The notes under the pieces are model-generated. The model was given only the letters and a program-made list of their open reading frames with translations. It made no database searches and was not told where the DNA came from. From the sequence record MG589383: a DNA stretch of 64,000 nt; one strand, 5' to 3'. The stretch comes from Shigella phage phi25-307. Shown here in pieces: positions 662-61,018 of this stretch. The position numbers and the translations under genes are program-made. Position 1 is the stretch's first letter. Each line of letters begins with the position of its first letter.

Positions 662-2749
662 CTATCCTTGGACAAATTTAAACGGAACTGATTCTAAATC
701 CATTAAAGATGCTAACAATTTCAATCCTTTAGGAGCACTAGTTTTTTCTACAAATGAGGAGAACGATATCGGCTCATCTGATTCGATTTCACCCGTCATA
801 GCAACCACCTCACCTGTTTCCATGAGAACATCACCGTCGTAAATGACAGCTTCGTCCAACTGGTCCGAGGACATGACTTCAGCTTGAATAAATTTAAGGT
901 TGGATTCTAAACCTGCACCAGTGTCAGATGACGCATCTGTAATTTTATTTATCTGCAAGAGAATGCCTCTAGGCAAAATAATTTCTTGCTCATTAGGGTG
1001 ATTACTCAACTGTCCAGGATAAATCACGTTAACTTTATGGGCGCCATCAATAGCCCATCCAACGTTAACACGGATTTGGTCTGGTGCATGCATAGCTGTT
1101 CTTACTTGACTAGGAGAAATAGTAACACCTTCGTCATTATTGTCAATGTTAAGCTCTTTGCGAACTTCTTCAGGAGCAAGTCCAAGGGCAACGTTCTCTT
1201 TAAACCCACCGAAAATAATAGGAGCTAGTGAAGTGGAAACATAGTTTCTGAAGTAGAATACCTTATTTTTAACCATTGCTTCGTAAATAGGCATTCTGAT
1301 AGACTGAGCTCTATATAACGTTAGTCCTTCAGGTAAACGGTCTCCATTTAAAAACGCTGAATCAAGACCATCAATAGCGCGTTTAACTTCATCTTCATCT
1401 GCAACATCGTAAAAATCTGGTTTATAACGACCTAACAGCATATTATTGATATCGGTATACGCAGAAGAGGCATATTCACGAATAGCTCGTTTTTCAGCAA
1501 CAGAGTATTGATTAGGGACCCGATTCATTGTTATATTAAAGGTGCCTCTAGCCGATTCTCGTGCATAAGTATACATCACATTAGACAAGAACGCTGATTT
1601 ACGTTGTTTCCAAGTTTTTTCAGATACTTCAGCTAAAACGTCGTCAGCCAGTTGGAAATTATCACGTCTAAAATCTTCAAACCATTCGTCTTTAATAGAG
1701 TCTGCAATTTCATTTGCAGCTTCAACAAAAGCAGTTAATGCTTTAACAGATGTTGTTTTTTCAGTTTTAATTTTCTTAGCAAACTTTTCTAAAGTTGGCT
1801 TAATAACACTACCATAAGAAACTTCATCAGCAAATCTAAAGGATTCATCAATACGATTATAAATCTTATTTTCGATATCAGCAACTAAAGTGCCTTTTGC
1901 TGTGGACGATGCTTGGGCTAGTACGATTTCATATGCTTCAGGAAGTAATTCGGCTGTAGCTGGGCCACTAACTTCTTTAGCAGAATTTTCGTATTTCTGG
2001 AATAACTCACCTTCTTGTCGGTCAGCTTCTAAAGATTGACTTGCTGCAATAGCACGACGAGAAATTTTAGTACGAGCAATAACAGGCTTATCTTTACGTT
2101 TTTCTTCTACAGCAGCAATAGAACCAGCGATAGCCGTTTCTTTGGTGACCTTTTCGCCAGTCTTTTTACTCACATAAACTTCGCCAACATCAGAATCTAC
2201 TTTCGTGTACAACTCTGTGTTAATGTTAGGGATGCCTTTAATATCTTCAATGTTGGCATTTTTGCGAACCATCATCACATAGGTGTGTTTACCTGTGAAT
2301 TGATACATTGCCGACAATACTTTAAAACGACCACCGGTTTTAGTAGAAACTAAACGAGCAAGAAGAGTTTGAAGCTGCTGTCCGCGTCCTTTCAATTTCT
2401 TGGTAGGGAATCGGAATAGAACTGCATCCATACGAAGAGCTTTAACCTGTTCATATACTGTATTGAAAATGGTGTTGATTGCATCAATAGGAGCAGGACC
2501 AAGGCCATTTTTCAATTCAGCGAGATTGCCCTTTTCAGATAGACTCATAATAACAACATGAGCGTATTTGTCGCCAAGTTTAACTTGTTTTACAGCATCA
2601 CCTTCGGAAAGGTAAGAGAATAAGCGAACTACGATGTTTGTATCGATATCACCAATTTTCCAGACTTGTGGAACTTTAGCTTTAGGGTTCAAATTGACGA
2701 CAGGAAGACTGCCTTCAGATTCAAACACTTCATTTAATTGTTCAGACAT
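662..2749 (-). CDS. alt: Alt-like ADP-ribosyltransferase (head-packaged), 695 aa
   Basis: C-terminal ART motifs in order: R (LYRAQSIR), STS (YVSTSLAP), E-x-E (NEQEIILPRG); size close to T4 Alt (about 682 aa); position between gene 54 and ligase as in T4. Confidence 0.8.
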   Translation of the reverse strand: MSEQLNEVFESEGSLPVVNLNPKAKVPQVWKIGDIDTNIVVRLFSYLSEGDAVKQVKLGDKYAHVVIMSLSEKGNLAELKNGLGPAPIDAINTIFNTVYEQVKALRMDAVLFRFPTKKLKGRGQQLQTLLARLVSTKTGGRFKVLSAMYQFTGKHTYVMMVRKNANIEDIKGIPNINTELYTKVDSDVGEVYVSKKTGEKVTKETAIAGSIAAVEEKRKDKPVIARTKISRRAIAASQSLEADRQEGELFQKYENSAKEVSGPATAELLPEAYEIVLAQASSTAKGTLVADIENKIYNRIDESFRFADEVSYGSVIKPTLEKFAKKIKTEKTTSVKALTAFVEAANEIADSIKDEWFEDFRRDNFQLADDVLAEVSEKTWKQRKSAFLSNVMYTYARESARGTFNITMNRVPNQYSVAEKRAIREYASSAYTDINNMLLGRYKPDFYDVADEDEVKRAIDGLDSAFLNGDRLPEGLTLYRAQSIRMPIYEAMVKNKVFYFRNYVSTSLAPIIFGGFKENVALGLAPEEVRKELNIDNNDEGVTISPSQVRTAMHAPDQIRVNVGWAIDGAHKVNVIYPGQLSNHPNEQEIILPRGILLQINKITDASSDTGAGLESNLKFIQAEVMSSDQLDEAVIYDGDVLMETGEVVAMTGEIESDEPISFSSFVEKTSAPKGLKLLASLMDLESVPFKFVQG

Positions 2750-2784
2750 AGTGTTTTCCTTTTAGTAATAATTTATATTTATGC

Positions 2785-2993: not shown

Positions 2994-4486
2994 TATAAAC
3001 CTGTCTGGGACCACGGTCCAAATACGTCTTCAAACGAATCCGCTTCTGTTTTATCAAAACGGAACCCTTTAATAATTGGAAGGAAAATACCTACAGTACC
3101 TTCACGGCCTTTAGAATGAACCCAACCATTACATTCACAATCAGCGATACGTCCAATTAATTTACCTTCACGAGCTTCGGTCATTAATCGTTCACGGTCT
3201 AAATCATGACGCTCGTCTAAAGGAATAAGAACCTTTACACCGTCAACTGTTTTATGAGTTGTATCTTTAAACCCTGAACCACAATCGGTTGTAATACGAC
3301 GACAACGTGATACGAGTTCGACACCACCTAATTTGTTAGGGTCTTTAGAGTGTTCATAGTATCCTACAACTTCTAAAGCGATATCAATAACTTCTTTAAA
3401 TTTAATTAGGTTCTTAGAGCGTTTGTTTTCCCAATATGAATCACGGTTTTTAAGGATAATACCTTCAAGACCTTGGTCAACATATTTTTTATAAACTACT
3501 TTAGCTTCGTCAAGATTACGAACTAACTGATTTTCAATTGGTTCAATTCGCTTAAAGCCTTCAGCCATATTTTCAAGAGCAGCAAAACGAACATCGTATT
3601 TCTGACCTTTAATTTTGCCGTCAGAATAGACTTCATCTAAAGGAACATAGTCCCAGGCTTGAAGAACCATACCTTCCGCTTCTTTAGGAGAAATAGTCCC
3701 TTGAAGAGATTTATTTGCTAAACCATTTGAAGTGCTACGGTCTGCAACTTGTACTTCTTCGGATTCTTCATTATCACCAAATAAGAACGACAGGTCATTT
3801 CCTGAGCTCACAGCCTTTTTAATATCGAATGAATGATAAACTAATTCACCGTCGATTAAAACCCCATTAGGGTGTCTTTCACGAGCTTCTTTAGTCATTT
3901 CCATTAGTTCATCCGCTAATAGAGTAAGACCATGGTATTCGTTACCAGCACGAGAAAAGAATTGAACACCATCATCGCGAACTTCAGCGAAACAACGAGC
4001 ACCATCTGCTTTTAATTGGGCAAATGCGGGCCATTTAATATTTTTAGTAATCAATTTCTCATCATATGCAGATGCTAACATCTGTGGTTGCAATTGAATA
4101 AGTCCAGGCCACACCTTATTCGCGATAGACACTGAAGCACCTACTTCAAGGTCGCGCATCATTACACGACGAAGGACTTCTACATCATCAGGTTTACCAT
4201 CAGCGATATAACCCATGAGCTCTTTAATTGCAGCATTACCGGTGAGTTTACGAGTGGCTAATGTGAACTCAATAAAATCCAACATGTCATCTAATTCAAG
4301 AAGACCATATGCTTGAGACCTTTCACCCGGTCCTGGCCATTTCTTAATATAATACTGGATACCACGTGCATATGTTAAACGATACACACGTTCAAGTAAT
4401 TTGTTGTCCTTATTTTTCTTAAGGATTTCTTGTTTTGTTTTAGTAGAACCGATCGCAGCTATTTGGTTTAAAATATCTAAAATCAT
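2993..4486 (-). CDS. 30: ATP-dependent DNA ligase, 497 aa
   Basis: Adenylation motif KADGAR; N-terminal region closely resembles T4 gp30 as remembered; size and position between alt and rIII match T4. Confidence 0.92.
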   Translation of the reverse strand: MILDILNQIAAIGSTKTKQEILKKNKDNKLLERVYRLTYARGIQYYIKKWPGPGERSQAYGLLELDDMLDFIEFTLATRKLTGNAAIKELMGYIADGKPDDVEVLRRVMMRDLEVGASVSIANKVWPGLIQLQPQMLASAYDEKLITKNIKWPAFAQLKADGARCFAEVRDDGVQFFSRAGNEYHGLTLLADELMEMTKEARERHPNGVLIDGELVYHSFDIKKAVSSGNDLSFLFGDNEESEEVQVADRSTSNGLANKSLQGTISPKEAEGMVLQAWDYVPLDEVYSDGKIKGQKYDVRFAALENMAEGFKRIEPIENQLVRNLDEAKVVYKKYVDQGLEGIILKNRDSYWENKRSKNLIKFKEVIDIALEVVGYYEHSKDPNKLGGVELVSRCRRITTDCGSGFKDTTHKTVDGVKVLIPLDERHDLDRERLMTEAREGKLIGRIADCECNGWVHSKGREGTVGIFLPIIKGFRFDKTEADSFEDVFGPWSQTGL

Positions 4487-6493: not shown

Positions 6494-7108
6494 CTACTTA
6501 ACGAAATTAATTTCTACTGGATGAACAACAGGTTGAGCAGTGATATATTGAGTAATTGCTTTCATGACTAGAGCTTCAGAACCAGGATTTTTCTCAACGA
6601 ATTCACGTGCTTGGTTATGAGCTTCAAGTTCACTTAGTAAACCACTTCGTTGGCATCCACGGTCTTGAGTACCCTGTTCAGATAAAAAGACGACGATGTA
6701 TTTTTCATCGTCATACGGTTTAGACGGTTGAGCAAATGTTCCTTTACTTCCAAAAGGAGAGTTATGACGCCACATCACGCCGTGAGGAGTTTCAACCTTC
6801 ATATATTCGTGCGGGCCATTTTTCTTAGTTTCTTGATGTGGAACTTCGTGGACCTTAGGGTTAGGACATTCAATAAAATGCTCATCTAAATCGGTCGAGA
6901 ATATTAAAGTAAAACAATTACTGAATTTACCAACACCTGCCTGATAAATTTTACCTTCAGAAGTTCTAATTTCACAAACCGAGCCGGCATCAGTAACTTC
7001 TAAAACTTCAAAAGGCTCGATAAGGTCATATGAGAACATGTTTTTAAGGCGTGGAGTAATATCCCCATTTTTAAAATTCATTTTATAAAAAGTATTAACT
7101 TTAAACAT
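6494..7108 (-). CDS. Hypothetical protein, 204 aa
   Basis: Long ORF preceded by GAGGAAA and the intercistronic hairpin at 7121-7136. Confidence 0.6.
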   Translation of the reverse strand: MFKVNTFYKMNFKNGDITPRLKNMFSYDLIEPFEVLEVTDAGSVCEIRTSEGKIYQAGVGKFSNCFTLIFSTDLDEHFIECPNPKVHEVPHQETKKNGPHEYMKVETPHGVMWRHNSPFGSKGTFAQPSKPYDDEKYIVVFLSEQGTQDRGCQRSGLLSELEAHNQAREFVEKNPGSEALVMKAITQYITAQPVVHPVEINFVK

Positions 7109-7120
7109 AATTTCCTCAGT

Positions 7121-7136
7121 GGGAGCCGAAGCTCCC
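7121..7136 (-). promoter_or_regulatory. Intercistronic UUCG-tetraloop stem-loop (no U-run) immediately upstream of an SD
   Basis: GGGAGC-CGAA-GCTCCC; on the minus strand it is followed by ACTGAGGAAATT-ATG. Confidence 0.4.
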
Positions 7137-7143
7137 AGTTAAA

Positions 7144-7509
7144 TTAGATATCGAATTCGTTAAGAACTACATCAAAGATTGCTTCGAGATGTTCAGGTTT
7201 AGCTCGGTTACTCAGGATATGACGAATCCAAGTTTTAACCAGAAGTTTACGATTATCACCGTTCCAGCAAGGATGAGTACCTAAATCACGTTGACGGAAA
7301 TCGTCATCTAATGCAATTTTGAAGTTGGAACCTTCCATCGTGATTGAAACCGTGATGCCATTTTCAAATCGCATATAAACGTAATTAGGAGTCATATACT
7401 GCTCAATTTCACATACTGAACCGTTATTATGTTTCCATAAGCAAATCGTATCAATAGAACCAGCAATACCGTTAGAAACATATTTACGTTCGAAGTTGAT
7501 GTAGTTCAT
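7144..7509 (-). CDS. Hypothetical protein, 121 aa
   Basis: ORF downstream of the promoter cassette at 7539-7578. Confidence 0.6.
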   Translation of the reverse strand: MNYINFERKYVSNGIAGSIDTICLWKHNNGSVCEIEQYMTPNYVYMRFENGITVSITMEGSNFKIALDDDFRQRDLGTHPCWNGDNRKLLVKTWIRHILSNRAKPEHLEAIFDVVLNEFDI

Positions 7510-7538
7510 TTATTCTCCAGATGTTTAAGTTGTTTGTT

Positions 7539-7578
7539 GGTACAGGTCTATAATAACAAAACCTGTACCAAAGTAAAC
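7539..7578 (-). promoter_or_regulatory. Early promoter embedded in a perfect 9-bp inverted repeat (PeSL-like cassette)
   Basis: Minus strand GTTTACTTTGGTACAGGTTTTGTTATTATAGACCTGTACC; arms GGTACAGGT / ACCTGTACC flank the -10 TATTAT. Confidence 0.55.
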
Positions 7579-7582
7579 ATTT

Positions 7583-7954
7583 TTATTTGATTTTTGTCCA
7601 CTTAGCTGAATCAATAACACCTTTTGCTTTAATCTTCTCGATTAATGACTCTGCACGATTTCTAGCATTTTCGTACCATACAACATCTTCAGAGTAACCA
7701 GTCTCTTCATCTTCGTAAGTTTTAGAACGAATACAACCATAAACTGTAGAATTCAGACGGTAAATTTCACCAGTGAAAAAGTTTTCGATTTCGATATGAT
7801 AACAAAAATCGTCTGAAGGGCCATCAGGAGTTGTACAATAAACTACATCACCTTGAACCGAACGAACCATCCACTGTAACTCGTTAACAACTTGAGATTT
7901 ATATCCATCATGGTCACGGCATTTAATTGTAGCATTTAAATTGATAGTGTTCAT
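7583..7954 (-). CDS. Hypothetical protein, 123 aa
   Basis: ORF downstream of the promoter at 7996-8024. Confidence 0.6.
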   Translation of the reverse strand: MNTINLNATIKCRDHDGYKSQVVNELQWMVRSVQGDVVYCTTPDGPSDDFCYHIEIENFFTGEIYRLNSTVYGCIRSKTYEDEETGYSEDVVWYENARNRAESLIEKIKAKGVIDSAKWTKIK

Positions 7955-16732: not shown

Positions 16733-17920
16733 TTAGAAATATTTTTTGTATGAATTGATTACATTTTGGTCTACATCATTATCAATTTGTGCGACAAGAT
16801 AAGAACTGATTTCAACTTCCTGAGGAGCTGCTTGAACTAAATCAGAGTTCAGATATTCACGAATCCAAGGATATGGATGCTTGGTCGGAGCATCAGTGAT
16901 TGGGCATGGTAAACCACACTGTTTCATACGAGACACAGTCAAGTAATCAACAAAAGCACACATACTCTGCGTATTGATACCTGGGCATGTACCGTTTTTA
17001 AAGAGGTGTGCAGCCCATTCCTTCTCTTGTCTATTTACTTCCATAAAAATGTCAACTGCTTCTTGTTCACATTCTTTAGCAATTTGAACCCACTCATCAC
17101 CATCAGTACCAGATTGAAGTTGACGGATAATGTACTGAGTACCCTTGAGGTGGAGTTGTTCGTCACGAGCAATGAACTTCATAATCTTTGCATTACCTTC
17201 CATAATTTCCATATTTTTATGGAAGTTGAAAGTACATGCAAATGATACGTAAAAACGAATAGCTTCTAAGGCATTGATAACATGCAAACAGAGATAAAGA
17301 GACTTCATTAAATCACGCTTGGCGTTAAACATTATTTCTTCATACATCTCAATATCATTCTGCTGGCATGAGCCTATTGAACGCTCATAATCTTCCTTAG
17401 CGTTTTCCCAATAACGAGTTTTAACCAGAACATCATCGTAATATTTACCTATTGATTCAGCTCGTTTCATGATTGCTTCGTCTAATACAATTTCATCAAA
17501 TACCTTAGATGGGTCCGTATAAAGATTTCGCATAATATGAGTATACGAACGAGAGTGAATAGTTTCACTGAATGTCCATGTTGCAACCCACGTATCTAAT
17601 GAAGGGTCAGAAATCAGTGCCATAAGTACCGCAGATGGGGCCCTGCCTTGGATAGAATCTAATAATGATTGATACTTAAGATTGTTTGTAAAGATGTCCT
17701 GTTGGAACTGAGGAAGCTTATTGAACTGCGCAGAGTCCAACATCAAGTTTACCTCTTCTGGGCGCCAAAAAAACGATAATTGCTTTTCGGTCAAATCTTC
17801 AAAAACTTTATGGCGTTGAATATCATAACGCGCAATACCAAGACCAGAACCAAAGAACATCGGTTCATTCAAAACATCAACTTGTTGTGTGTTAAAAACT
17901 GTACTCATTATATTTCTCAC
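16733..17920 (-). CDS. nrdB: Ribonucleotide reductase small (beta) subunit, 395 aa, uninterrupted
   Basis: Class Ia RNR beta-like sequence with a single continuous ORF (no intron); position denA-nrdB-nrdA as in T4. Confidence 0.88.
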   Translation of the reverse strand: MRNIMSTVFNTQQVDVLNEPMFFGSGLGIARYDIQRHKVFEDLTEKQLSFFWRPEEVNLMLDSAQFNKLPQFQQDIFTNNLKYQSLLDSIQGRAPSAVLMALISDPSLDTWVATWTFSETIHSRSYTHIMRNLYTDPSKVFDEIVLDEAIMKRAESIGKYYDDVLVKTRYWENAKEDYERSIGSCQQNDIEMYEEIMFNAKRDLMKSLYLCLHVINALEAIRFYVSFACTFNFHKNMEIMEGNAKIMKFIARDEQLHLKGTQYIIRQLQSGTDGDEWVQIAKECEQEAVDIFMEVNRQEKEWAAHLFKNGTCPGINTQSMCAFVDYLTVSRMKQCGLPCPITDAPTKHPYPWIREYLNSDLVQAAPQEVEISSYLVAQIDNDVDQNVINSYKKYF

Positions 17921-17960
17921 TTAGTTTAACTCATCCATGAGTAAATTATAATCAAAAGTC

Positions 17961-20216
17961 TTAAAGCTTACAAGCAGAACAATCTTCAGCTTTAGGTGTT
18001 TCTAATTCGTAGTCATCTGTACCTGACCCATCACGAGTGTTATGATAGTAGAGGTTTTTTCCGCCAAAGTACCAGAAGTAAAGTAGATCGTCAAGCATTA
18101 CTGACATTGGTACTTTACCTTTCTCAAATACTGCAGGGTCATAGTAAGTATTAGCAGAAGCAGATTGGCACACCCATTTCAACATGATAGCAACTTGGGT
18201 CAAATAAGGTTTATTACCTTTCTTAGCAAGTTTCCACGCGTAGTCGTAAAGACTCATGTTATGTTCTATATTAGGAACAACCTGACGGAAGTTGCCTTCT
18301 TTAGATTCTTTAATACTTACTGGACCGCGTGGGGGCTCAATCCCGTTTGTAGAGTTTGATACTTGACTGCTTGACTCACAAGGCATGAGTGCAGACAACG
18401 TTGAGTTACGAATTCCATGTTCTTTGAGTTCAGCTCGAAGTTCTTCCCAGTCACAGACGTAGTTCGGGGCTGCGATTTGGTCAATCTTTTTATTGTACCA
18501 GTCGATAGGTAATTCGCCTCTAGACCATTTAGTGTCTGAATAATACTCGCAACATCCTTTTTCTTTGGCGAGTTTGATTGAAGCTTTGATAAGGCCATAT
18601 TGCAATCTCTCAAACAATTCATGAGTCAAATCGTTAGCGTCTTCATATGAAGCAAAGTTGGAAGCTAACCATGCGGCATAGTTCGTAACACCAACACCGA
18701 GGTTTCGACGCTTTTTAGCTTTTAAAGCTTCTGGAACCGGATAATCTTGATAGTCTAACAGGTTATCAAGTGCACGTACTTGTACTTCAGCAAGTTCATT
18801 AATTTTATCTTGGTCTTGCCAATCAAATTTATCTAATACAAAAGCAGATAATGTGCATAAACCAATTTCAGCATCAGGACCATTCACATCATTAGTTGGA
18901 ATAGCGATTTCACAACATAAGTTACTCTGACGAATTGGAGCTTTTTCACGAATAAATGGAGTGTAGTTATTCGTGTTATCAACAAACTGTGGATAAATTC
19001 GAGCAGTGCCAGAACGTTCAGTCATGAACAATTCAAAGAGTTCTAGTGCTTTTATTCTTTTCTTTCTGATTGTTGGGTCTTTTTCAGCTTTCTCATAAAG
19101 CTCACGGAATTTATCTTGATCTTCAAAGAACGAGTAGTATAGTTCGCCTGACATTTCGTGAGGGCTAAATAAAGTAATATAATCATTTTTACCAAGGCGT
19201 TCCATCATAAGGTCATTAATCTGAATTCCGTAGTCCATATGACGAATACGGTTTTCATCCACGCCTTTGTTATTTTTCAGAACTAATAGGTTCTCTACTT
19301 CTAAGTGCCACATCGGATAATACGCTGTAGCAGCACCACCACGAATACCACCTTGAGAACAAGATTTTACTGCAGTTTGGAAATGTTTCCAGAATGGAAT
19401 AACACCTGTATGTCGAACTTCACCCATACCGATCTTAGAACCTTCTGCACGAAGCATACCAACGTTGATACCGATACCAGCTCGTTTAGAAATATATTCA
19501 ATAATTGATGCTGAAGTTTTGTTAATAGATTTTAACGAATCACCGGCTTCAATAACTACACAACTAGAGAACTGGCGAGTTGGAGTACGAGCACCTGCCA
19601 TAATTGGAGTAGGCAATGAAACTTGATGAGTAGAAACGGCATCATAAAAACGAATAATATGTTTCAAACGGTCGTGAGTTTCGTCTTGATGTAAGGCCAT
19701 ACCAATAGCCATGATAGCAAACTGTGGAGTTTCATAAATCTTCCCAGTTGTTTTATCTTTAACTAGATATTTTTCTTTAAGCTGCATAGCACCAGCATAA
19801 GTCAGGTCAAAGTCTCGTTCATGTTTAATCTGTGAATCGAGATAAATGATTTCTTCTGCTGAATATTGAGACAACAACTCAGGGTCATATTTGCCTTCAT
19901 TAACACAGTAAGAAATATGGTCGATAAAAGCAGGTGGTTCAAACTGTCCGTATACATCTTTACGAAGTGCAAACATTAGCCCTTTGGCGGCGACATACTG
20001 ATAATCAGGTTCTTCGACAGAAATCAAGTTAGCTGCAACTTTAATACAAATCTTCTGAATATCTTTGGTGCTCATCCCATCGACAAGATGGGTCTTAATT
20101 TCTTCGTACAATTCATATGGATCAATTTGTGTTCCTTCACATTGCCAAGTTAAGACTTGAATAATTTTCTGTGCATCAAAATTTTGGGATACACCACTGC
20201 TCTTAGTTACTTGCAT
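17961..20216 (-). CDS. nrdA: Ribonucleotide reductase large (alpha) subunit, 751 aa
   Basis: Class Ia RNR alpha features (ATP-cone-like N-terminus, CEIAIPT and conserved Cys-containing segments); size close to T4 NrdA (about 754 aa). Confidence 0.9.
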   Translation of the reverse strand: MQVTKSSGVSQNFDAQKIIQVLTWQCEGTQIDPYELYEEIKTHLVDGMSTKDIQKICIKVAANLISVEEPDYQYVAAKGLMFALRKDVYGQFEPPAFIDHISYCVNEGKYDPELLSQYSAEEIIYLDSQIKHERDFDLTYAGAMQLKEKYLVKDKTTGKIYETPQFAIMAIGMALHQDETHDRLKHIIRFYDAVSTHQVSLPTPIMAGARTPTRQFSSCVVIEAGDSLKSINKTSASIIEYISKRAGIGINVGMLRAEGSKIGMGEVRHTGVIPFWKHFQTAVKSCSQGGIRGGAATAYYPMWHLEVENLLVLKNNKGVDENRIRHMDYGIQINDLMMERLGKNDYITLFSPHEMSGELYYSFFEDQDKFRELYEKAEKDPTIRKKRIKALELFELFMTERSGTARIYPQFVDNTNNYTPFIREKAPIRQSNLCCEIAIPTNDVNGPDAEIGLCTLSAFVLDKFDWQDQDKINELAEVQVRALDNLLDYQDYPVPEALKAKKRRNLGVGVTNYAAWLASNFASYEDANDLTHELFERLQYGLIKASIKLAKEKGCCEYYSDTKWSRGELPIDWYNKKIDQIAAPNYVCDWEELRAELKEHGIRNSTLSALMPCESSSQVSNSTNGIEPPRGPVSIKESKEGNFRQVVPNIEHNMSLYDYAWKLAKKGNKPYLTQVAIMLKWVCQSASANTYYDPAVFEKGKVPMSVMLDDLLYFWYFGGKNLYYHNTRDGSGTDDYELETPKAEDCSACKL

Positions 20217-36615: not shown

Positions 36616-37275
36616 ATGGCAACACCAAAAGTATCATTTTCGCCTAGTGATATTCTATTTGGGTTGCTAGATCGTATTTTCAAAGATAACGCTACTGGAA
36701 AGGTTTTAATGTCTCGAGTAGCGGTAATTATTCTTTTGTTCCTAATGGCACTAATATGGTACAAAGGAAGTATTTTGCTGGATTATTATGTAAGAGCTAA
36801 GTATGATACTTATACTGAAATAATCCAAAAAGAACGAGCTTTACGTTTTGAATCTGCGGCTCTAGAACAACTGCAAATAGTTCATATCTCATCTGGTGCA
36901 GATTTTAGTGCTGTGTATTCTTTCAGACCTAAAAACTTAAATTATTTCGTCGACCTTATAGCTTATGAAGGCAAACTACCTAGCACAATTTCTGAAAAGT
37001 CCCTTGGCGGATTTCCGGTGGATAAAACGGCCAATGAATATATAATTCATTTAAGTGGCCGTCATTTCTCATCTAAATCAGAATTTGCATTTTTGCCTAC
37101 AAAATCTAAGACCGCCGAACTTTCTTATATGTATAGTTGCCCATACTTTAATTTGGATAACATCTATGCTGGGACTGTGACGATGTATTGGTATAAGGGG
37201 AGTAATATACTTGAGGAGGATCGCTTAGCGGCTATATGCAACCAAGCGATCCGAATACTAGGAAGGGCTAAATAA
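36616..37275 (+). CDS. t: Holin T, 219 aa
   Basis: Close match to remembered T4 holin (SFSPSDILFG.LDR.FKDNATGKVL.SRVAV..LLF.MA..WY...), single N-terminal TM segment and large periplasmic domain; SD AAGGAGG. Confidence 0.92.
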   Translation: MATPKVSFSPSDILFGLLDRIFKDNATGKVLMSRVAVIILLFLMALIWYKGSILLDYYVRAKYDTYTEIIQKERALRFESAALEQLQIVHISSGADFSAVYSFRPKNLNYFVDLIAYEGKLPSTISEKSLGGFPVDKTANEYIIHLSGRHFSSKSEFAFLPTKSKTAELSYMYSCPYFNLDNIYAGTVTMYWYKGSNILEEDRLAAICNQAIRILGRAK

Positions 37276-58907: not shown

Positions 58908-59144
58908 TTAACCGCTTACTGGTGTAGGCGTGAACATTGCTGCGTTCTTGGTCTTCCAGTCAGCAGCATCAGTTACTACCGTTGTATAAGCAGCTTTTTC
59001 AGACGGGAAAGTCTGATAATGAGAATCTGCAATACGATGTTCGTTTGAATAAATCTCAAACGGTACAGAAACTTCCATACCTTTAACTTCTTTACCTTCA
59101 CCTGCAGGATGCGTAAAGGTTTTGATGTTTACATAACCACCCAT
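58908..59144 (-). CDS. soc: Small outer capsid protein Soc, 78 aa
   Basis: Close match to remembered T4 Soc (GYVNIKTF, HYQTFPSEKAAY.TV); size about 80 aa; late promoter upstream. Confidence 0.85.
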   Translation of the reverse strand: MGGYVNIKTFTHPAGEGKEVKGMEVSVPFEIYSNEHRIADSHYQTFPSEKAAYTTVVTDAADWKTKNAAMFTPTPVSG

Positions 59145-59175
59145 AATTAACTCCTTTGTTGTTTAATTACAGGTG

Positions 59176-59183
59176 TATTTATA
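59176..59183 (-). promoter_or_regulatory. Late promoter TATAAATA for soc
   Basis: Minus strand AGTTATAAATACACC, about 32 nt upstream of the soc ATG. Confidence 0.55.
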
Positions 59184-59189
59184 ACTTAA

Positions 59190-59708
59190 TCAGTAACCAT
59201 TATCCTGGCGTTCAAAGTTGTGTTGGTTTTTCAGGTAATACAGTTTGAAGATTTCTTCAGCAGAAAGTCCTAGACCTTGGAACATATTTAGAACGAAATG
59301 TAGGATATCAATCATCTCGAATTTAATTTCAAGCTGGTCTTCAGGAGACAGTTCATCGATACGACGATTTCGATATTCAGCATGTTGTGCCTTCCACGGC
59401 TTCCATACAGAGCTAGCGGCTTTTTCACCATTGCTCATACCACCAAGTGAAGTCAGCAGTTCACGGAATTCATCATCAATATAATCTTTCTGATTACGCA
59501 GCCAATCAACAACATCACCAGCAGTAGCCAATTCATCAGGATGTTTGTTATGTTCAGGCTTGTCATTTGCCAGACGAACCTGTAAAGATTTCTGCATATC
59601 AAGCATTACCTGCAGAGGGTCTTTATCTTCGTGAATCAGGGCATTAAAATAAGCTTCTTCTGCTTTATCAACACCAGAAATAAGTTGTGAACATTCGTTA
59701 AAGTGCGC
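59190..59708 (-). CDS. 56: dCTP pyrophosphatase (dCTPase/dUTPase) gp56, 172 aa
   Basis: Start trimmed to MAHFNEC; close match to remembered T4 gp56 (DPLQVMLDMQ, FRELLTSLG, SPEDQLEIKFE..D..HFVLNMF.GLG, EEIFKLYYLKN); position between soc and 61. Confidence 0.75.
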   Translation of the reverse strand, partial: AHFNECSQLISGVDKAEEAYFNALIHEDKDPLQVMLDMQKSLQVRLANDKPEHNKHPDELATAGDVVDWLRNQKDYIDDEFRELLTSLGGMSNGEKAASSVWKPWKAQHAEYRNRRIDELSPEDQLEIKFEMIDILHFVLNMFQGLGLSAEEIFKLYYLKNQHNFERQDNGY

Positions 59709-59801
59709 CATTATTTTTCCTTTCAATTCAGTATAAGAGAGTTTAATTCTAACATTAATTTTATAAAGCGTAATAAATAATAAGGTAACTAAGGAGATAT
59801 T

Positions 59802-59999
59802 ATGTTTAAACTTCCATCGTTAATCAACGCTATTAAAGGCAATAAAAAGAAAACTGCTATCGCTGCAATAGTTGTAGGTGGCATTATTTCATGGAACTTC
59901 GGGATTGCACCATTGTTAGTTGCCCATGGTGTTATAGTTCCTTCTGTTCCATTGGATACTGTAGTTGATTTGGCCTTTGCTATTATAGGGCTTGTTTAA
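59802..59999 (+). CDS. Small membrane protein, 65 aa, plus strand inside a minus-strand early block
   Basis: Strong SD AAGGAGA 8 nt before the ATG; two hydrophobic segments (IAAIVVGGIISW, VVDLAFAIIGLV). Confidence 0.5.
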   Translation: MFKLPSLINAIKGNKKKTAIAAIVVGGIISWNFGIAPLLVAHGVIVPSVPLDTVVDLAFAIIGLV

Positions 60000-61018
60000 A
60001 TCTTAGAATAACGAGATAATCTCATTTTAGCATGCAACCCACTTGAAATATTCTGTTTCATATATTCTAAAATTTCTTGTGGTGTTGCATTTTCTTTCAT
60101 TACCATATCATTCACATCCTTTGAACTCCATGGAGCTCTATCCCAGAACATAACACGTTCGCCTGCATCTACTAATCGCTTCATACGAGCTATAGTATCC
60201 GGATGCCTAGGTTCATTATCCATCACCCATACCCGACGTTCTTTAAATGGTACCACATCTAAATCTATTGAGCCGCCTGTAATAGCGATTGCATTGGGTA
60301 TGAATAAACTATCAATAGGGCCTTCCATTACCCAGACGTCTCCTTCCTTAACACGTTCAACACCATAAATTTTTGTTGCAGACTCAAACGCTTTAATAGT
60401 GATATATTTCTGAGGAGCATCTTTACGAAGTGCACGTCCTTGGAATGACTCGGCCTTCCCGTCTTTATTAAAAATAGGAATCACTAAACGTGGTTCGGGA
60501 ATCTCTTTCTTATACGTACCAGGTTGAATCTTGTTGACCAATTTAGGCCATTCTAATGTGAACCATAATCTGTTCCATGATTCTTTAGGAATGCATCGAG
60601 ACTTAACATATTTCACAATAGGATGCTCTTCAGGCAGCTTGTCCAGACGAGAACAAGACGGCAAAGAATTTATAGTCTTTTTCTCCGGTTCTGGTTTATG
60701 TTCAGGAACCTTTTCAATCTTTGGTCCCATTCTAGCTTTTTCTTTACGAACTTCCATTAGATATTCGCGGTAAAGCTCTTCATCATACTCTTTTAAGTAT
60801 CCGGAAATTGTATTGTGGTATTGACAATTATAGCAATGTACATTACCAGGAGTACCGCCATAATACCAACCGCGAGCTTTCATTGCATCTGTCTGGGAGT
60901 CGCCACAAACTGGACAACGAAATGTTAATTTAAATGTGCTTGAATTATTGATTTGTCTAAAACGAGGTAGGTGAGAAAACGCACGATAAGCAAATTCATT
61001 ATCTATCCATTCAGCCAT
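59996..61018 (-). CDS. 61: DNA primase gp61, 340 aa
   Basis: N-terminal zinc ribbon CPVCGDS...CYNCQYH followed by a TOPRIM-like region; size close to T4 gp61 (342 aa). Confidence 0.9.
   Translation of the reverse strand: MAEWIDNEFAYRAFSHLPRFRQINNSSTFKLTFRCPVCGDSQTDAMKARGWYYGGTPGNVHCYNCQYHNTISGYLKEYDEELYREYLMEVRKEKARMGPKIEKVPEHKPEPEKKTINSLPSCSRLDKLPEEHPIVKYVKSRCIPKESWNRLWFTLEWPKLVNKIQPGTYKKEIPEPRLVIPIFNKDGKAESFQGRALRKDAPQKYITIKAFESATKIYGVERVKEGDVWVMEGPIDSLFIPNAIAITGGSIDLDVVPFKERRVWVMDNEPRHPDTIARMKRLVDAGERVMFWDRAPWSSKDVNDMVMKENATPQEILEYMKQNISSGLHAKMRLSRYSKI

Follow-up and report, generated by a model that had tools for sequence, protein, structure and literature searches.

Gene organization of the locus

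The window analyzed in this study is a 64,000-nucleotide stretch of the Shigella phage phi25-307 genome (MG589383), and its orientation is that of the standard T4 map, with the early and middle genes on the minus strand and the tail-fiber genes 34 to 38 and the holin gene t on the plus strand. Every ORF of at least 150 amino acids between 39 kb and 62 kb lies on the minus strand. Within this block, the plus strand carries an ORF (59802..59999) that begins with the ATG at 59802 and is translated into the 65-residue sequence MFKLPSLINAIKGNKKKTAIAAIVVGGIISWNFGIAPLLVAHGVIVPSVPLDTVVDLAFAIIGLV. The original prediction described it as an ORF with a strong Shine-Dalgarno (SD) sequence that is transcribed oppositely to its neighbors, genes 56 and 61, and overlaps the stop codon of the latter; we verified its coordinates, the AAGGAG sequence with its 5-nt spacer, the minus-strand location of both neighbors, and the TTAA shared by the two stop codons. 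The features of the locus are as follows.

59190..59711, minus strand: gene 56, dCTPase/NTP pyrophosphohydrolase, divergent neighbor (phrog_173, E = 1.6e-45)
59791..59796, plus strand: SD sequence AAGGAG, 5-nt spacer to the ATG
59802..59999, plus strand: 65-amino-acid ORF for a small, predicted membrane protein (phrog_2024, subtype A), stop codon TAA at 59997-59999
59996..59999: TTAA, 4-nt overlap of the convergent stop codons (ORF on the plus strand, gene 61 on the minus strand)
59996..61018, minus strand: gene 61, DNA primase, convergent downstream neighbor (phrog_47, E = 4e-102)

The start of gene 56 (ATG at 59711) was chosen after the HX01 annotation. The surrounding region is 97-98% identical to Mosigvirus genomes such as PNJ-9, F2, ST0, and HX01, and sp- and imm-like genes are located within 3 kb of the ORF. 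GGAG or GGAGG is present at the equivalent position in all 12 homologous loci. The 4-nt overlap of the stop codons is also found in T4, fPS-2, HX01, Marfa, and the second copy of VR26/VR25, whereas the overlap with gene 61 is 21 nt in PM2, and in KPV15 the two genes are separated by an 18-nt spacer that contains a hairpin. The KPV15 spacer (locus extract 2227..2244) consists of the GC-rich hairpin AGGGGC-TTTG-GCCCCT, which resembles a bidirectional terminator. A promoter/terminator scan of positions 59100-60400 of the window found no terminator-like site.

In T4 and fPS-2, the minus-strand RNA over codons 4-12 of the ORF forms a hairpin of 8-11 bp followed by UUAAUUUUUG, with dG values of -8.9 and -12.4 kcal/mol, respectively (z about -3). 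The following regions were compared.

T4 extract 3725..3790, minus strand: hairpin region
fPS-2 extract 2480..2545, minus strand: hairpin region
59788..59853 of the window, minus strand: equivalent region

The fPS-2 record labels this hairpin a terminator, and in Tequatrovirus it may terminate gene 61 transcripts inside the coding sequence of the opposite strand. The hairpin was not found in the window region (z = +0.93), and the idea that the ORF is kept open merely by a minus-strand terminator hairpin was rejected on this ground.

Evidence for a protein-coding gene

The length of the ORF is not significant by itself, since many spurious ORFs of 60-100 amino acids occur nearby, opposite to real genes on the noncoding strand, and the case for a gene therefore rests on comparative evidence. 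The protein matches phrog_2024 (function not assigned) with E = 2.1e-27, residues 1-65 aligning with positions 1-65 of the 65-position profile, and the T4, subtype B, and subtype C homologues described below also match this profile. A tblastn search found matches to the subtype A protein in 691 phage records, with a query coverage of at least 80% in 684 of them; the Mosigvirus matches are 95-100% identical, and those in Tequatrovirus (including T4) and Gaprivervirus are 46-56% identical. An open frame of 63-67 codons is kept in 12 loci from eight genera.

Codon comparison of eight loci gave pS values of 0.57-0.79 between genera (synonymous sites saturated or nearly so) at a pN of about 0.33, and dN/dS values of 0.1-0.35 within genera; T4 and fPS-2, for example, differ by 11 synonymous and 4 nonsynonymous substitutions. 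Because the ORF lies in an otherwise noncoding spacer, no overlapping gene accounts for this pattern, and by these comparisons the small gene is under purifying selection.

The opposing explanation, that there is no gene here and that the ORF arose by chance in a regulatory spacer holding the gene 56 promoters and the end of gene 61, draws on the frequency of chance ORFs of 60-100 amino acids in this AT-rich window and on the RefSeq records of T4, JS98, and SP18, in which the region is left unannotated. It is contradicted by the frame of 63-67 codons in eight genera, each with an SD sequence, by the substitutions indicative of purifying selection, and by the PHROG match (E = 2e-27). We put its probability close to nil and regard the chance-ORF reading as already effectively refuted by the sequence comparisons. 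The comparative evidence shows that the ORF at 59802..59999 is a bona fide protein-coding gene of the uncharacterized family phrog_2024. Thus, the suggestion that a genuine plus-strand gene lies isolated among minus-strand early and middle genes is borne out by the PHROG match, the kept frame, and the selection pattern, and the frame proves to be conserved in related genomes.

Subtypes and distribution of the family

An exhaustive HMMER search with a subtype A profile against 1.84 billion representative sequences returned only 2 clusters; the wider reach required a mixed-subtype profile, which was built with the tandem second ORF of VR26/VR25 and recovered 104 protein clusters. The family comprises three subtypes that share 18-26% identity with one another and match phrog_2024 with E values of 1e-24 to 1e-31 (about 1e-24 to 1e-26 for B and C). 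Subtype A includes the window protein, the T4 protein, and copy 1 of Gaprivervirus. Subtype B (MGTIFYQIWKL...; 122 tblastn records) is found in Dhakavirus JS98, Marfavirus, Mosugukvirus PM2, and Enterobacter phages and as copy 2 of Gaprivervirus. Subtype C (KPV15, MSEVKQECKDKGG...; 165 tblastn records) occurs in Jiaodavirus, and its more distant members are those of Citrobacter phage Moon and Salmonella phage STP4-a. A six-frame hmmsearch detected no paralogues elsewhere in the window.

The site of the gene is fixed in every locus inspected: it lies on the strand opposite to its neighbors, convergent with gene 61 and on the gene 56/dam side of it. This synteny and orientation are shared by Mosigvirus, Tequatrovirus, Gaprivervirus, Dhakavirus, Marfavirus, Mosugukvirus, and Jiaodavirus, and the same site holds homologues in some 950 phage genomes, which represent at least 10 genera of Tevenvirinae. 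Since a gp61 at least 60% identical to that of the window is present in about 963 records, the small gene appears to be near universal in the subfamily. Together with the purifying selection, these counts (691, 122, and 165 records for the three subtypes against about 963 for gp61) contradict the earlier expectation that the gene is accessory, in the sense of sporadic.

The gene is absent from Slopekvirus KP15 and Krischvirus Brandy, in which gene 61 directly abuts gene 56, and from Tulanevirus avDM3 and Lazarusvirus PhaR5, in which gene 61 is followed by genes on the same strand (one genome inspected for each genus). Slopekvirus, Krischvirus, and Tulanevirus belong to Straboviridae, and Lazarusvirus is a genus of Acinetobacter phages. 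Given its absence from these four outside genera, at one genome each, the small gene looks like a Tevenvirinae innovation.

In Gaprivervirus VR26 and VR25, the interval between genes 56 and 61 holds tandem paralogues, one of subtype A and one of subtype B (locus extracts 2001..2407), and the latter (copy B) lacks its own promoter motif. In SP18 (extract 2199..2310), TH54, DK-13, and P896, copy B is reduced to its C-terminal half and copy A is intact. The decay of copy B only beside an intact copy A suggests that subtypes A and B are functionally redundant.

Upstream promoter motif and predicted timing of expression

A NATAAATA motif precedes the start codon of the small gene at every locus examined (n = 12). 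The elements that bear on the timing of transcription are as follows.

59772..59779, plus strand: AATAAATA, T4 late-promoter (-13..-6) motif, A(-13) variant, 22 nt before the ATG
59746..59772, minus strand: middle-promoter-like element for gene 56 (tACGCTTTAt, 12-nt spacer, -10 element TAGAAT)
59176..59183, minus strand: canonical TATAAATA for soc, between the end of gene 56 (59190) and the start of soc (59144)
2775..2782, minus strand: CATAAATA before the Alt ADP-ribosyltransferase gene (662..2749, minus strand)

The heptamer ATAAATA is invariant at 12-22 nt upstream of the ATG in the 12 loci from eight genera, while its flanks vary. The octamer is AATAAATA in the window, HX01, fPS-2, and JS98, GATAAATA in T4 and PM2, CATAAATA in Gaprivervirus and KPV15, and the canonical TATAAATA in Marfa, and thus its first base is not T at most of the loci. 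On the two strands of the 64-kb window taken together, the heptamer occurs 17 times, which is about half as often as base composition predicts. When an SD sequence, a start codon, and an ORF of at least 30 amino acids were demanded within 45 nt downstream, six of the 17 remained, namely, those before genes 34, 36, t, soc, and alt and that before the small ORF. In T4, genes 34, 36, t (holin), soc, and alt are late genes. The use of CATAAATA by alt shows that, in the same genome, a non-T variant precedes the counterpart of a T4 late gene.

The small gene shares with soc and alt the NATAAATA motif, followed by an SD sequence and an ATG at 20-31 nt, and the location in an early-transcribed region; the soc gene is about 650 bp away, and the soc promoter is about 590 bp from that of the small gene. 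However, soc and alt lie on the minus strand, and their products are soluble virion proteins, whereas the small gene is on the plus strand and its product is hydrophobic.

The T4 late promoter is TATAAATA at -13 to -6, and among 50 sites, 32 are perfect and 9 have A(-13), the commonest variant (PMC2988020). T(-13) is poorly conserved in T4-like phages (PMC1524935). The early and middle transcripts of T4 all run counterclockwise, while late transcripts run in either direction (PMC2988020), which is consistent with a plus-strand gene that lacks a plus-strand sigma-70-like promoter; the scan detected no such promoter upstream of the ORF, and in 59100-60400 sigma-70-like sites were no commoner than in shuffled sequence. 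Transcription is predicted to start near 59785, which would give a leader of about 17 nt. The best inference from the conserved late-promoter motif is that the small gene is a late, gp55-dependent gene embedded in the early block, as is soc, and its late timing would explain why it is on the opposite strand.

The putative middle-promoter-like element of gene 56 was read from the sequence according to the established consensus of T4 middle promoters. At the equivalent place, fPS-2 annotates a predicted middle promoter. If both assignments are correct, divergent promoters that belong to two temporal classes would share the 90 bp separating gene 56 from the ORF. We also considered whether the conserved heptamer is the A/T-rich flank of a minus-strand MotA box; this was rejected, since T4, Marfa, and KPV15 have ATAAATA without a GCTT box.

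Predicted structure and membrane topology of the product

The small protein is hydrophobic (GRAVY of 1.24). Its five basic residues all lie within the first 17 residues, and its two acidic residues are near the C terminus. With every Lys near the N terminus, LPSLINAIK in the window protein and LMALVNAIK in the T4 protein are the only tryptic peptides of practical use, which would explain how the protein could escape shotgun proteomics. An AlphaFold2 model obtained with an alignment of 51 sequences (mean pLDDT of 83.7 and pTM of 0.60) contains three helices, formed by residues 4-13, 15-41, and 51-62, the last of which has 12 residues and is preceded by a loop of residues 42-50. Ala, Gly, Ser, and Thr abound in the predicted transmembrane helix (TAIAAIVVGGIISWNFGIAPLLVA), which also contains a Trp-Asn pair, to which subtype B adds an Asp. 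By a crude Hessa sum, the first hydrophobic stretch (residues about 18-41) is marginal, at 0 to +3 kcal/mol across the subtypes, and the C-terminal stretch of residues 45-65, with two Pro and two Asp residues, is at +4.5 to +9 kcal/mol. The last 24 residues (HGVIVPSVPLDTVVDLAFAIIGLV) contain no basic residue and have a net charge of -2; in the other subtypes, the net charge of this region is 0 to -1.

The positive-inside charges and a C-terminal stretch unfit to span the membrane make a single span with the N terminus inside and the C terminus outside the most economical arrangement, and the product is predicted to be a bitopic inner membrane protein of roughly 7 kDa; a re-entrant hairpin may be an alternative topology. 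The proposal of a small membrane protein with two hydrophobic segments is therefore supported as to hydrophobicity and as to a membrane-spanning helix at residues about 18-41, while the second segment appears too costly to insert for a further span.

Six residues, W31, N32, P37, G43, P47, and G63, are invariant in eight genera and three subtypes. They include those of a conserved (H/Q)-G-x-x-x-P loop, which is followed by the short C-terminal helix (acidic in subtype A). Helices in membranes are classically driven to associate by an invariant Asn at mid-helix, and we infer from N32 that the protein may oligomerize or bind a partner in the membrane. Searches with the window and T4 proteins found no match in Pfam or NCBIfam at E values of 1 or below, a profile search of the PDB gave only noise (best hit, YejA; E = 0.49), and Foldseek with the AlphaFold2 model found only the family itself in BFVD and nothing in the PDB.

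Possible role of the product

In the reading that we favor as somewhat probable, the small gene is a real, late-expressed phrog_2024 gene whose bitopic inner membrane product acts at the envelope late in infection. Its transcription would proceed clockwise from a late promoter that belongs to the gene itself and depends on gp55, gp33, and gp45 (AATAAATA, 22 nt before the ATG). Its product would thus be made late, when transcription of the adjacent early and middle genes is from the opposite strand or absent. The short basic N terminus (net charge of +5) would be cytoplasmic, one weakly hydrophobic helix of residues about 18-41 would span the membrane, and the C-terminal tail of 24 residues (loop and short helix) would lie on the periplasmic face of the membrane or be embedded in it. 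The invariant Trp-Asn pair, the Pro five residues further on, and the conserved loop would mediate helix-helix contacts in the membrane, through either homo-oligomerization or the binding of a phage or host membrane partner. With such late timing, the envelope at the end of infection is the most likely arena, and the role there could be to tune either holin T and the timing of lysis or membrane integrity; a structural or enzymatic role appears less likely. The timing, the localization, and the conserved transmembrane motif, all of them predicted, hint at this envelope or lysis function, whereas the gene is not adjacent to the lysis genes and its product is not homologous to holins, antiholins, or spanins of any family. 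The more specific proposal, that the product is an overlooked late component of T-even phages that uses its invariant Trp-Asn/Pro transmembrane motif to bind holin T or another membrane partner and thereby sets the timing or inhibition of lysis or the state of the membrane, is one that we consider possible but doubtful. If such a role in lysis control or membrane physiology is true, the protein would be a new player in a classical and supposedly complete system; if the gene is dispensable without a phenotype, it would be one more small hypothetical membrane protein of a phage.

The protein could itself be holin or pinholin like, i.e., oligomerize and permeabilize the inner membrane, with T being joined by a second or auxiliary holin. 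The protein is small, its promoter is predicted to be late, and its one predicted transmembrane helix (AlphaFold2 helix of residues 15-41) contains polar residues. In these features it resembles T4 T, T7 gp17.5, and class II holins and pinholins such as S21, and one family member, from phage OE5505, is labeled "Holin" in UniProt (A0A482MZV5). However, the highly charged, hydrophilic C-terminal domain of holins is missing, the C terminus being hydrophobic with a net charge of -2 to 0 across the subtypes. No similarity to a holin family was found in Pfam, NCBIfam, or PHROG or by Foldseek against BFVD and the PDB, no endolysin gene adjoins the small gene, and the genome already encodes holin T (36616..37275). 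The lone label is given without supporting evidence and stands against hundreds of entries named "hypothetical protein." We therefore judge a holin to be improbable. An antiholin of the RI type was rejected: the N-proximal, marginally hydrophobic helix of the small protein, with its many Ala, Gly, Ser, and Thr residues, may resemble those of T4 RI and other SAR domains, and the product is predicted to face the periplasm, but RI binds holin T through a periplasmic domain of about 70 residues, whereas only 24 residues follow the helix here, so that the globular domain is missing, and there is no homology between the two. A role in morphogenesis at the membrane, e.g., as a helper of prohead initiation, or as a minor hydrophobic virion component would fit the mostly structural or assembly functions of T4 late genes, including the neighboring soc, and the near-universal conservation in the subfamily would fit core biology; the absence of the gene from Slopekvirus and Krischvirus (one genome each), two genera that are likewise members of Straboviridae and share the 61-56 neighborhood, and the lack of similarity to structural proteins in sequence or fold make this quite unlikely.

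The location in the early block, within 3 kb of the sp- and imm-like genes, and the small size and predicted membrane association, which recall Imm, are what would be expected of an early or middle accessory membrane protein for superinfection exclusion or host takeover, expressed from a sigma-70-type promoter. Imm and Sp are indeed small T-even envelope proteins of the same genomic neighborhood, but they are early proteins encoded on the minus strand under another promoter class, and neither is homologous to the small protein, whose sole PHROG match is phrog_2024 and which has no Pfam or NCBIfam match. In addition, the early and middle transcripts of T4 all have the opposite polarity (PMC2988020), no plus-strand sigma-70-like promoter was found upstream, and the conserved upstream element is the late-promoter heptamer, which leaves only a slim chance for an early accessory function. 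Lastly, the functional product might be the late plus-strand transcript itself, which would be antisense to gene 61 and damp the primase late in infection, with the peptide being incidental. In the window and in T4, the two stop codons overlap, and downstream of the ORF there is no hairpin resembling a terminator, so a late transcript should enter gene 61. It is, however, the amino acid sequence and not the nucleotide sequence that is conserved, with saturated synonymous sites and invariant Trp-Asn, Pro, and Gly residues; the GC-rich hairpin of KPV15 may insulate the two genes from each other, and VR26 has a second ORF between the small ORF and gene 61. Selection on the amino acid sequence and the KPV15 hairpin make a purely antisense RNA role very unlikely.

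Annotation of the gene in phage genomes

The window protein is 100% identical to Mosigvirus entries deposited under the name "hypothetical protein," e.g., that of Shigella phage phi25-307 (YP_010093341.1), and annotated members of the family include HX01 D299_gp163, VR26 gp031/gp032, fPS-2 g031, and Marfa CPT_Marfa_028. By sequence, the gene is thus already catalogued yet uncharacterized, a plain subtype A member with the same position, orientation, length, SD sequence, and ATAAATA motif as its relatives. In the literature on T4 ribosome profiling, small proteins, transcription start sites and late promoters, CRISPRi-ART/HIDEN-SEQ, and strand-specific RNA-seq, we found nothing on the ORF.

In the T4 RefSeq record (NC_000866.4), nothing is annotated in the 310-bp gap between dam (end at 17625) and gene 61 (17935..18963). 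The T4 homologue, of 66 amino acids, is located in this gap at 17738..17938 on the plus strand (locus extract 3739..3939), with AAAGGAGG and GATAAATA upstream, and the exact protein has no NCBI accession in a collection of 15 billion proteins. The RefSeq records of JS98 (locus extract 2501..2698) and SP18 (2001..2198) also omit the homologue. T4 is among the most thoroughly annotated viruses, yet its RefSeq "gap" holds a gene that occurs throughout the subfamily and has a late-type promoter motif. As a practical outcome, the ORF can be annotated as a real phrog_2024 gene, probably of the late class.

In the HX01 RefSeq record (NC_018855.1), three small ORFs at locus positions 1540..1719, 7059..7427, and 7488..7700 carry implausible product names, i.e., a 59-amino-acid "molybdenum ABC transporter," a 122-amino-acid "iduronate sulfatase," and a 70-amino-acid "DNA polymerase." The same record contains plus-strand ORFs of 25-37 amino acids that are probably spurious, such as that at locus positions 3699..3776, which lies over the start of gene 56.
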